A stretch of DNA of 64,000 nt from an uncultured Bacteroides sp. (GCA_964634005.1 CAZWKQ010000004.1:42105-106104); one strand, 5' to 3'. Counted from the stretch's first letter, positions 5,925 to 61,348 are shown. Notes: a model not told the origin generated them from the letters alone. Made by a program: numbers and translations.

Positions 5925-6995
5925 ATGAAAAAGCACAATTTTAACGCAGGACCTTGCATTTTGGCAAAACCTGTTATCGAAAACACTGCAAAAGCCGTTT
6001 TAGAACTCGATAATATCGGGATGTCGCTTATCGAAATTTCTCATCGCAGTAAAGAATTTCAAGCAATAATGGATGAAACAGTTGCATTATTTAAAGAAAT
6101 ATTAAACATCCCCGAAAATTATCATGTTTTATTTTTAGGTGGAGGTGCAAGTTTACAATTCTGTATGGTACCTTATAACCTTTTAAATAAAAAAGCTGCT
6201 TATCTCGAAACAGGAGTTTGGGCAAAAAAAGCAAATAAAGAAGCAAAATTATTCGGACAAGTTGATATTGTTGCTTCATCAGCAGACAAGAATTTTAGTT
6301 ATATACCCAAAAACTATACTATACCTGCCGATGCCGATTATTTTCATATTACAACAAACAATACCATTTATGGTACTGAAATTCATGTTGACATAGATAG
6401 CCCTGTTCCATTAGTAGCCGACATGTCAAGCGATATTTTCAGCCGTCCTGTTGATGTTTCAAAGTATGCATTAATATATGGCGGAGCTCAGAAAAATCTT
6501 GGACCTGCCGGTGTTACTTTCGTTGTAGTAAGAGAAGATATTCTTGGCAAAGTAGAAAGAGCTATTCCTACTATGCTCGATTATCGTACTCATATTAAAG
6601 AAGGTTCAATGTTCAATACTCCTCCTTGTTTTGCAATTTTTGCCGTAAGAGAAACTTTAAGATGGCTAAAATCTATAGGTGGTTTAGAAAAAATGTATGA
6701 AATGAACAAAGCAAAAGCTAAGCTTCTTTACGATGAAATAGAAAGAAACTCTATGTTTGTGGGTACTGCTGAAGTTGAAGATCGTTCGATAATGAATATA
6801 TGCTTTGTTATGGATGAAAAATATAAAGATAAAGAAGAAGCATTTATGGAGTTTGCTAAATCAAAAGGTATGGTTGGCATAAAAGGCCATCGTTCGGTAG
6901 GCGGTTTCAGAGCATCAACTTACAATGCACTTCCGATTGAAAGCGTTCAGGCATTGGTTGATTGTATGAAAGAATTTGAAAAATTAAACGCATAA
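5925..6995 (+). CDS. serC: Phosphoserine aminotransferase
   Basis: 356 aa. The N-terminus NFNAGPC and the [14 protein letters not shown]-lysine region are typical of SerC. It is adjacent to a serA-like dehydrogenase. Confidence 0.92.
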
Positions 6996-58913: not shown

Positions 58914-60455
58914 CTACTTAGCATAGCTTATAGCGCGCGTTTCTCTGATAACAGTAATTTTTATCTGTCCGGGATACGTCATTTCTTCCTGAATTTTGTG
59001 CGATAAATCAACAGAAAGCTGATTTGCTTCAGCATCGGTCATTTTATCGGCACCCACTATAACCCTAAGCTCTCTACCTGCTTGAATTGCATAAGTTTTA
59101 ACAACACCCGGGTACGATAATGCCAATTCTTCAAGATTATTCAGTCGGTTTATATAGGCGTCAACAACCTCTCTTCTTGCTCCGGGTCTTGCTCCTGAAA
59201 TAGCATCGCATACTTGAACAATAGGAGCAATAAGAGTTTCCATTTCAATTTCGTCGTGATGTGAACCTATAGCATTGCATACTTCGGGTTTTTCTTTGTA
59301 TTTCTCGGCAAGTTTCATACCTAAAATTGCATGTGGAAGATCAGGCTCATTATCAGGAACTTTGCCGATATCGTGCAACAAACCGGCTCTTTTTGCAAGT
59401 TTTGGATTCAGACCTAATTCGGCAGCCATTGTAGCACATAAATTTGCTACTTCCTTTGAATGTTGGAGTAAGTTTTGACCGTAAGAAGAACGATATTTCA
59501 TTTTACCAACCAATCGAATAAGTTCGTGGTGCATATTCAGTATTCCAAGATCAATAGTTGTACGTTTACCGATTTCTACTATTTCCTGTTCAATTTGTTT
59601 TTTAACTTTTGCAACAACCTCTTCTATTCTGGCAGGATGTATTCTGCCGTCGGTTACTAATTTGTGTAACGACAGTCTTGCAATTTCCCTTCTAACAGGG
59701 TCGAAACCAGAAATAATAATAGCATCGGGCGAATCATCAATAATTATTTCAACGCCGGTAAGCGATTCTAAAGTTCTGATATTTCTTCCTTCTCTTCCTA
59801 TTATCCTACCCTTTACTTCATCGCTTTCGAGATTGAAAACAGAAACAGAGTTCTCGATAGCATGCTCTACTGCAGTTCGTTGTATGGTTTCAATAACAAT
59901 TTTTTTCGCTTCGATATTTGCAGTAATTTTAGCTTCATCCATTACATCTTTTATAAGATTCATGGCATCGTTCTTAGCTTCTTCTTTTAGTGTATCAATA
60001 AGTTGTTCTTTAGCCTCTTTTGCAGTAAGTCCGGCTATAAGTTCGAGTTTTTCAACCTGACTTTTGTGAATTTTTTCGAGTTCAGCTTGTTTTTTGTTTA
60101 CAATTTCAAGTTGACTGTTTAAATTTTCTTTTAAAGCATTAAGTTCGTTCTGTTTACGTTGAACCTCTTCATACTTTTGCGATAAAGCGGTTTCTTTTTG
60201 TTTAATTCTGTTTTCGGCTTTTAAAATATTGTTATTCTTTTCTTGAATAACTTTTTCGTGTTCAGCCTTTAACTGTAAAAATTTTTCTTTAGCCTGTAAA
60301 ATTTTTTCTTTTTTGATAACTTCAGCCTTTTCTTCGGCTTCAATTAAAATTTTCTGGCTTTTTTTATCTACAATTTTTCTTAATACCGTGGTTGCTAAAA
60401 TAGCACCGAGCATTAAAGTAAATAAAGCAATAATAATTGTAACAATTACACTCAT
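58914..60455 (-). CDS. rny: Ribonuclease Y
   Basis: It has an N-terminal TM helix, a coiled coil, a KH domain ([12 protein letters not shown]) and an HD domain (LLHDIGK). I trimmed the start to the ATG at 60453-60455 ([12 protein letters not shown]...). The track's extension to 60521 reads through an A/T run and a predicted RNA helix. Confidence 0.92.
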
Positions 60456-60505
60456 TTTAGTACAAAAATTAGTTAGTAAATATATTGATTTGACAGTGTT
60501 GAAAT

Positions 60506-60705
60506 AAAAAAAAACCCGCAATTGATTTTTTGGGTGTAGTAAACCCCAAAAATATACTTATAGGGCTGCCAGAAACATCAAACGTCCACTGTCTCAAAAA
60601 AATGAGAACCTGCAAGCAGGTTGAGGCCTGTTTTTAATCCCTTTGAGCTTATCCCTAATGATTGTAATGTTGAGTTTACAAACTGAAATAAATCAATGCG
60701 GGTAT
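60506..60705 (-). ncRNA. Candidate structured small RNA (about 200 nt; 6S-like is one hypothesis)
   Basis: Five properly nested complementary segments are visible:
- 60514-60528 with 60690-60703 (14 bp, one bulge).
- GTAAAC 60539-60544 with GTTTAC 60674-60679.
- TAGGG 60561-60565 with CCCTA 60653-60657.
- CTCAAA 60593-60598 with TTTGAG 60642-60647.
- Apical hairpin AACCTG-CAAG-CAGGTT at 60607-60622.
On the minus strand the closing helix is followed by U9. The region is locally more GC-rich than the other intergenic spacers. Confidence 0.45.
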
Positions 60706-60752
60706 ATCTTTCGATATGTGTATAAAATTTTCAAAGAACGCGCCTTCTAATT

Positions 60753-61040
60753 TTACGATATATTTTCACTTAATACTTTGTCAATTTCTTTTAATTTTAT
60801 TTCCAACTCTTTATCTCTAAATTCTGCTTCTTCCTCCAGCTTCAATGTGCTTGTTGTGTATTGTAAAGCTACCATTGCCAACAAATCCTGTTTATCCTTA
60901 AAAGCATAATTTTGAGCATATTCCATCAATTTCTCTGACAACAATTTGGTTGCTTTTCTGAAAATCTCTTCCTCTTCTCTTTCTATCGTAAGCTTGTAAT
61001 GCCTGTCTGCTATCCTCACCGTTATCGAGATTTCACTCAT
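60753..61040 (-). CDS. zapA: Cell division protein ZapA
   Basis: 95 aa. The N-terminal beta segment (ISITVRIADRHYKLTIEREEE) followed by a helical tail is the typical ZapA layout. Confidence 0.7.
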   Translation of the reverse strand: MSEISITVRIADRHYKLTIEREEEEIFRKATKLLSEKLMEYAQNYAFKDKQDLLAMVALQYTTSTLKLEEEAEFRDKELEIKLKEIDKVLSENIS

Positions 61041-61060: not shown

Positions 61061-61348
61061 CTATTTATTTAAAAGACCTATACACTTATCTATTTCCCGC
61101 AGCATTTCGTTAATCTTGACTTTTTGTTCAAAAGTATTTGAACTGCCTTCTAACGATTTTGCTATTTTCAACACTTTAATTTTTTCTTCTAGCTCTTTTA
61201 TTATTTTTTTTTGTTCTTCAATTATTTGTTCGTACTCTTTATTTTTGTCATTTAATATCTTATTCTCTTCATCTAACCTTTTGTTTGTATTTATAAGCTT
61301 TCTTAGTTTATATTCTACTCCTGACAATAAGAGTTTTAATTCATGCAT
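61061..61348 (-). CDS. Small coiled-coil protein (ZapB-like?), hypothetical
   Basis: 95 aa, almost entirely heptad-like and Lys/Glu-rich. It lies 20 nt upstream of zapA on the same strand. Confidence 0.5.
   Translation of the reverse strand: MHELKLLLSGVEYKLRKLINTNKRLDEENKILNDKNKEYEQIIEEQKKIIKELEEKIKVLKIAKSLEGSSNTFEQKVKINEMLREIDKCIGLLNK

Follow-up and report, generated by a model that had tools for sequence, protein, structure and literature searches.

The window analysed here, a stretch of 64,000 nt taken as a whole, carries on its minus strand the order zapA, a 297-nt spacer and rny. This spacer length, as given in an earlier note on the same DNA, is reproduced when rny is taken to start at the ATG at 60455 and zapA to end with its stop codon at 60753. 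The features of the locus are as follows:

60753-61040, minus strand: zapA (Pfam ZapA, 63.5 bits), the stop codon ending at 60753
60732-60740, minus strand: upstream motif CGTTCTTTG, found as (C/A)GTTCTTTG in 73 of 78 sequences
60506-60703, minus strand: the structured element that is the subject of this analysis
ATG at 60455, minus strand: start of rny (Pfam RNase_Y_N, KH and HD)

The closing stem of the element lies 49 nt from zapA, and its U-run lies 50 nt from rny. The element has a G+C content of 0.384, as against 0.14-0.30 for the 20 other internal window spacers of at least 60 nt (a crude, ORF-based comparison set), in agreement with the richness in G+C remarked upon earlier; the whole zapA-rny spacer stands at 0.327 and the window average at 0.33. 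A 95-residue coiled-coil ORF (61061-61348, minus strand), which has no Pfam match, precedes zapA, and the array of coiled-coil ORF, zapA and 6S resembles the ZapB-ZapA-SsrS unit of proteobacteria.

Relatives of the locus were obtained as 80 loci fetched via RNase Y (75-89% identity) from species-representative genomes, comprising Bacteroidales, Lentimicrobiaceae, Prolixibacteraceae and similarly labelled metagenome-assembled genomes. With nhmmer, 77 of the 80 loci were found to carry the complete element immediately before rny, on the same strand and, in most of them, at a distance of 25-60 nt. The zapA gene was directly upstream in 78 loci and a small coiled-coil ORF was found before zapA in 74, the order coiled-coil ORF, zapA, 6S and rny being kept across nearly all 80 genomes. 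In locus L071 the element is cut by a contig end, and the remaining part matches positions 156-221 of the covariance model described below. Locus L046 (2823-2935) retains the upstream motif, the closing stem and the U-run but has a short insert where the 6S core would be, while the spacer of L036 (2853-3000) is an unrelated 148 nt in which nothing similar to the element was found; together, L046 and L036 point to lineage-specific loss or relocation of the 6S gene. In locus L013, the DUF805 RNA motif (RF03081) was also seen to match downstream of rny, at 6552-6620 and 5942-6010, with scores of 72 bits (above gathering) and 30 bits.

From the closing stem the RNA continues into a second helix and an open loop of 14 x 13-14 nt, beyond which an interrupted apical stem carries two tandem hairpins; its parts, given here from the 5' end, occupy the following positions:

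60690-60703, minus strand: closing stem, 5' arm, ACCCGCAUUGAUUU, partner of 60514-60528
60672-60683, minus strand: helix P2, 5' strand, GUUU-GUAAACUC
60658-60671, minus strand: central bubble, 5' strand, AACAUUACAAUCAU, 14 nt, opening with a near-invariant AACAUU
60646-60657, minus strand: helix P3, 5' strand, with UAGGG at 60653-60657 and GCU at 60646-60648
60623-60642, minus strand: P4/P5, 5' strands, with AGGGAU at 60637-60642, AAAC at 60630-60633, CC at 60625-60626 and C at 60623; the conserved ACAGGCCUC region, partner of 60571-60589
60607-60622, minus strand: apical hairpin A, AACCUG-CUUG-CAGGUU
60592-60607, minus strand: apical hairpin B, UCUCA-UUUUUUU-UGAGA
60571-60589, minus strand: P4/P5, 3' strands, the conserved CAGUGGA.GUU region with GUUUCU
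60561-60570, minus strand: helix P3, 3' strand, with CCCUA at 60561-60565 and GGC at 60568-60570
60547-60560, minus strand: central bubble, 3' strand, UAAGUAUAUUUUUG, 14 nt
60534-60546, minus strand: helix P2, 3' strand, GGGUUUAC..ACAC
60531-60547, minus strand: candidate alternative 3' hairpin, GGGGUUU / ACACCC, in competition with P2
60514-60528, minus strand: closing stem, 3' arm, AAAUCAAUUGCGGGU, with one bulged U at 60521
60506-60514, minus strand: U9 run that follows on from the closing stem; 60514 is also paired with A60703

The minus-strand RNA 60497-60710 folds with a minimum free energy of -53.1 kcal/mol (z = -3.08 against dinucleotide shuffles), and as the plus strand folds about equally well (z -3.23), the strand is left undecided by thermodynamics alone. 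RNAalifold applied to a plain MAFFT alignment returned 26 pairs, 18 of them with compensatory changes, and a hand count on the same alignment added further helices. A covariance model built from the MAFFT alignment with a manually specified structure gave the window 200 bits for its minus strand but 35.7 for its plus strand, and the relatives 102-210 bits in the forward and no more than 41.6 bits in the reverse direction; no second copy of the element was found in the 64,000-nt window, the next match to the model reaching 14.9 bits. In the model-based alignment of 78 sequences, which is fitted to the structure, standard pairs filled 91.5% of the 4088 cells in 54 consensus pairs (shuffled mean 79.2%), changes on both sides were seen in 43 of the 54, and none of 500 shuffles matched the element alignment on any of five measures. 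When the 3' partners were slid by 1-3 columns, pairing fell to 33-50%, and the same pair exchanges were visible on the independent MAFFT alignment. The window sequence forms 53 of the 54 consensus pairs as standard pairs, and the G-U pairs, such as the U-G present in 75 of 77 at pair 80/193, are compatible with the minus strand only. The element is a strand-specific, conserved structured RNA of about 190-210 nt, made up of some 190 nt and a short tail at the 5' end, and encoded at 60506-60703 on the minus strand of the window.

The earlier note had proposed five segment pairs from the window alone, and a check for compensatory changes in the related zapA-rny spacers allowed these to be sorted. 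Covariation across the 77 relatives was found for its first three helices, namely 60690-60703 with 60514-60528 (14 bp, one bulged residue), GUAAAC at 60674-60679 with GUUUAC at 60539-60544, and UAGGG with CCCUA in P3, as well as for the hairpin at 60607-60622. In the closing stem CCCGC/GCGGG is invariant and the outer pairs covary, with both-side changes in 10 of its 14 pairs. The 8-bp core of P2 is 98.9% paired, with pair 49/219 occurring as C-G in 63 and U-A in 14 distinct rows and pair 48/220 as U-G in 58, C-G in 11 and U-A in 8; nowhere is the family better conserved than in GUUUGUAAACUCAACAUU, the block made up of the P2 5' strand and the adjoining first bases of the bubble. P3 is 94-98% paired, with exchanges from A-U to G-C and from G-C to A-U, one P4 pair is found as six standard pair types, and P5 is 97% paired with a G-C to A-U exchange. 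By contrast, the proposed fourth helix (CUCAAA at 60642-60647 with UUUGAG at 60593-60598) pairs in 52.6% of the family, the same as in shuffles (393 of 500), and was rejected as complementary in the window sequence only; its UUUGAG belongs to hairpin B, and its 5' segment to the GCU/GGC and AGGGAU/GUUUCU helices. Hairpin A, at 60607-60622, does exist: every aligned sequence has it, with a wide variety of stem sequences and 94-99% pairing, but it is not the apex of a simple rod as had been thought, since it is one of two tandem hairpins. The second of these, hairpin B, which is likewise common to all members of the family, has five pairs, all with both-side changes, and is 91% paired. Hairpin A and the U7 loop of hairpin B (60592-60622, minus strand) also fit a simple intrinsic-terminator pattern. 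A scan for sigma-70 and terminator consensus returned only window-specific features, namely this hairpin and the U-rich loop after it; because the relatives have other loops in hairpin B, the terminator-like pattern is specific to the window sequence.

The strands between the second and third helices had been counted as largely complementary (about 10 of 15), whereas in register the window strands form just 4 pairs in 14 positions, and across the family the two strands have no complementarity beyond chance (mean 5.36 against 5.20 in shuffles, with a duplex energy weaker than shuffled). Their lengths are held nearly constant, the 5' strand at 14 nt in 77 of 78 sequences and the 3' strand at 13-14 nt in 72 of 78. 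With its strands unpaired, the bubble is thus an open loop of 14 x 13-14 nt, which fits a 6S RNA better than the earlier reader had supposed. The candidate alternative 3' hairpin belongs to the minimum free energy fold of the window and is 82.8% paired in the family; its covariation is weak, although above controls (17 both-side cells against 9.3 expected, a level reached in 1 of 500 shuffles).

As noted previously, the 3' arm of the closing helix runs straight into U9, and a run of 6-9 U was present in 65 of the 78 sequences, which is likely to be the 3' end of the RNA or an intrinsic terminator. At the other end, the observation that no TAnnTTTG promoter precedes the element was borne out, none being present at the expected place in either the window or the relatives. 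That place, occupied by the TAnnTTTG -7 box in Bacteroidales-1 genes, is taken instead by (C/A)GTTCTTTG, a motif without the TA, which is specific to this site. Its distance from the closing stem is mostly 15-18 nt, and 28 nt in the window; in most of L001-L080 it is found at about 2700-2740. No conserved -33 element was found upstream of CGTTCTTTG in the window or the relatives. Similar CGUUCUUU strings were observed upstream of two published 6S-Flavo members. It is possible that CGTTCTTTG acts as a non-canonical -7 promoter box or as a processing signal for the RNA, which probably starts a few bases past the motif and ends in the U-run after the closing stem.

Downstream of the element, the -7 box TAATTTTTG that had been placed before rny proved to be unconserved: all 77 relatives lack a TAnnTTTG from the U-run to the rny ATG, and no conserved canonical promoter was found in this interval (60456-60505 in the window and its equivalents). 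These spacers, 25-60 nt in most loci, are pyrimidine-rich and often carry ACTAA near the ATG. As there is no separate conserved promoter before rny, some read-through into the gene is likely, and at least part of rny transcription may come from the 6S gene in this way, as for fau/ygfA after ssrS in E. coli. The 3' bubble strand at 60547-60554 (minus strand) reads TAnnTTTG in the window and in 15 relatives that form essentially one clade; as a literal promoter mimic this was rejected as a family feature, being present in only 16 of 78 sequences, and in those genomes it could be an internal DNA promoter directed towards rny.

In the scan against Rfam suggested earlier, no family was reported in the window at gathering thresholds, and neither RF00013 (6S) nor RF01693 gave a match in 60400-60800 even at E <=10. 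The sole notable permissive match in this interval was to 6S-Flavo (RF01685), at 32.8 bits (gathering score 85; E 0.0033 in 401 nt) over the full model, positions 1-108, with ACUCAAC matched exactly and GGGGUUU aligned. The alignment places a 33-nt insertion at the apex of the window element, and it is this two-hairpin insert that accounts for the low score. The more distant loci L066 and L054 reached 41.6 and 36.8 bits against 6S-Flavo, and 38.1 and 32.7 bits against Bacteroidales-1 (RF01693, gathering score 60), in each case over the full model; the alignment of L066 with RF01693 shares the closing stem, AAACUCAnCA, GGCC, two tandem hairpins, GUGGA, GGAGUUU, and GCGG with the U-run. A sequence-only HMM of the family was also run on members of the alignments published as supplement to Weinberg et al. 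2010 (PMC2864571), where it matched the 6S-Flavo member JCVI_SCAF_1101668538900 end to end (E 1.3e-22, HMM positions 4-210) and the Bacteroidales-1 RNA of P. gingivalis, also end to end (E 1.8e-5). In that paper 6S-Flavo was put forward as a diverged form of 6S RNA, and its alignment was noted to be probably partial (PMC2864571).

With 6S-Flavo the element has in common a 5' block ACUCAAC and a 3' block GG(A/G)GUUU flanking the core, the apical-stem motifs GCC...GUGGAAGUU and, in a published marine member, a CCCG.AUUAAUUCA closing stem followed by RNase Y. It differs in that the Rfam model comprises the bubble and apical stem only (108 positions) with a short apex, as in F. psychrophilum, whereas the window element has the two-hairpin apex insert of 33 nt, and in that its host belongs to a Bacteroidales (Bacteroidia) lineage and not to the Flavobacteriia. 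The N-terminal region of RNase Y follows three published members of the 6S-Flavo alignment; that after JCVI_SCAF_1101668538900 is 54.7% identical to the window protein over 64 residues, and Pfam agrees. We also observed that the Geobacillus kaustophilus entry NC_006510.1/1316360-1316875 of the published 6S-flavo.sto (PMC2864571) lies directly upstream of rny, the downstream gene matching Pfam RNase_Y_N at 78 bits. As a cross-phylum homologue this entry was rejected, for it has no sequence similarity to the family and the fold of its 5' UTR does not surpass that of shuffles (z -0.21), and its adjacency to rny may be a coincidence or a very remote relationship.

The Bacteroidales-1 RNA, which we take to be the 6S RNA of Bacteroides, Segatella and Porphyromonas, resembles the element in its AGCCGC/GCGGCU closing stem with U-run, AAACUCAnCA, tandem apical hairpins, GGUGGAUUAC and GGAGUUU, and its consensus ends in the same GCGGCUUUUU as the U-run end here. 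Its genes have canonical -33/-7 promoters, in contrast to the CGTTCTTTG upstream of the window element, and its P. gingivalis members have no RNase Y match in their flanks, while the window element lies between zapA and rny. An S. copri (Segatella copri) study described Bacteroidales-1 as the 6S homologue of B. thetaiotaomicron and found the S. copri RNA to accumulate in stationary phase (10.1101/2024.04.05.588293). Product RNAs (pRNAs) have been detected for the B. thetaiotaomicron 6S RNA (PMC7366714), and the 6S-Flavo RNA of F. psychrophilum is expressed at levels that increase towards stationary phase (PMC9723704, supplement).

Comparison with the E. coli 6S RNA (ssrS, RF00013) showed a similar size (183 nt, against about 190-210 nt here), a similar rod of closing stem, central bubble and apical stem, and a gene lying just downstream of zapA on the same strand, at 41 nt there and 49 nt here, so that the earlier statement on the place of ssrS in E. 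coli was correct; co-transcription with the downstream gene is also likely to be shared. On the other hand, the two RNAs have no detectable sequence or covariance-model similarity, the downstream gene is fau/ygfA there and rny here, the 3' end here resembles an intrinsic terminator formed by the closing stem itself, and the partner polymerase would in this case carry a Bacteroidota-type sigma-A. The ZapB-ZapA-SsrS array has been described as conserved in, and ancestral to, the beta- and gamma-proteobacteria (PMC7641849).

The main claim of the earlier note, that of a discrete, rod-like, 6S-like minus-strand RNA of about 200 nt placed after zapA as in E. coli, is supported both by the structure and by the homology to 6S-Flavo and Bacteroidales-1. 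As judged from sequence comparison, the element is an orthologue of the Bacteroidota 6S RNA that neither curated model reports at threshold in this lineage; it is a diverged copy of this already known family and not a new type of element. We therefore consider it highly probable that the element is ssrS, the 6S RNA gene of this Bacteroidales bacterium.

The constant position of the element 25-60 nt upstream of rny on the same strand, together with the lack in the relatives of a conserved TAnnTTTG between the U-run and the rny ATG, could also be read as pointing to a cis-acting element whose main role is that of a 5' leader or attenuator of rny. The closing helix and U-run would then form a conditional terminator controlling the amount of upstream transcription that enters the RNase Y gene, with the structured core as the sensor of a protein or of RNase Y itself. 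The linkage to rny extends to the published 6S-Flavo members and the Geobacillus match, but the Geobacillus region is dissimilar in sequence, with a fold no better than shuffles. Moreover, the homologous Bacteroidales-1-type RNAs have canonical promoters of their own, a terminator is annotated downstream of the P. gingivalis members, whose flanks contain no match to RNase Y, and the B. thetaiotaomicron 6S RNA yields pRNAs (PMC7366714), while an open 14 x 14 loop of fixed size within a rod is what a 6S RNA needs and is not a trait of attenuators. Co-transcription of ssrS with the downstream gene is normal in E. coli (PMC7641849) and is therefore no argument against a 6S RNA. A primary role as leader thus appears improbable, although an additional one is possible because no conserved rny promoter follows the element. 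Less probable again is a conserved trans-acting small RNA with another target, such as a protein sponge or a base-pairing regulator, that is merely 6S-shaped. Scores against the curated 6S models do fall under threshold, and 6S function in this lineage is predicted by homology, but that homology runs end to end in sequence to two families assigned as 6S, the zapA-ssrS synteny is shared with proteobacteria, and the element has no long conserved single-stranded seeds besides the bubble strands. A last reading, in which the A+T-rich spacer yields the helices by chance or the region encodes the 48-codon ORF present at 60469-60615, might be suggested by that ORF and by the comparable folding of the plus strand, but is refuted by the strong strand specificity of the covariance model and the compensatory changes in 77 homologues, with G-U pairs that suit the minus strand only and variation that is paired and not codon-like.

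6S RNA mimics an open promoter and thereby restrains RNA polymerase, and the site at which 6S RNAs template their pRNA corresponds to the P2 5' strand with the first part of the bubble. Taking the element as 6S RNA, a mechanism can be proposed by analogy with 6S-Flavo, Bacteroidales-1 and the 6S RNAs of E. coli and B. subtilis. The rod and open loop would mimic a melted promoter and fill the active-site cleft of the housekeeping sigma-A holoenzyme, so that accumulation of the RNA in stationary phase would damp transcription. Once nucleotides are available again, the near-invariant 5' strand GUUUGUAAACUCAACAUU would be copied by the polymerase into a short product RNA; by the same analogy, we infer that the P2 5' strand with its adjoining bases is the template region, and the predicted pRNA, complementary to GUUUGUAAACUCAACAU, would take the form 5'-(A)UGUUGAGUUUAC... 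This product would displace the P2 3' strand, GGGGUUUAC, and the freed strand could pair with the downstream AAACCnC to give the GGGGUUU/AAACCnC hairpin, upon which the complex would fall apart. The sequence of the candidate alternative 3' hairpin is compatible with such a release switch after pRNA synthesis. Binding to the sigma-A holoenzyme and release by pRNA synthesis are thus expected from the behaviour of the known 6S RNAs.

A more extended reading would treat zapA-ssrS-rny as a functional unit, in which the 6S RNA arises from a non-canonical and strongly conserved start or cleavage site that depends on CGTTCTTTG, the closing stem is the sole terminator before rny, RNase Y is made by read-through, and the linkage to zapA reflects an ancient or selected coupling to cell-division control. 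We offer this as a speculative proposal that is rather unlikely to hold. If true, RNase Y expression would depend on read-through from the 6S gene, and the zapA-ssrS linkage in Bacteroidota and in beta- and gamma-proteobacteria would reflect a coupling of 6S RNA to cell-division control.

The identification of the element as 6S RNA gives a 6S RNA gene to many, mostly uncultured, Bacteroidales in which Rfam thresholds report none, the carriers including Lentimicrobiaceae-like assemblies and assemblies labelled Prolixibacteraceae or Draconibacterium. Three features of the locus provide leads: the site-specific CGTTCTTTG motif in place of a canonical -7 box, the presence in Bacteroidota too of the zapA-ssrS linkage known from proteobacteria, and the tie of ssrS to rny in Flavobacteriia and many Bacteroidia. 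The sequences described here are intermediate between 6S-Flavo and Bacteroidales-1 and make both Rfam families one RNA with the same full-length architecture; 6S-Flavo and Bacteroidales-1 could thus share one clan or one rebuilt full-length model.
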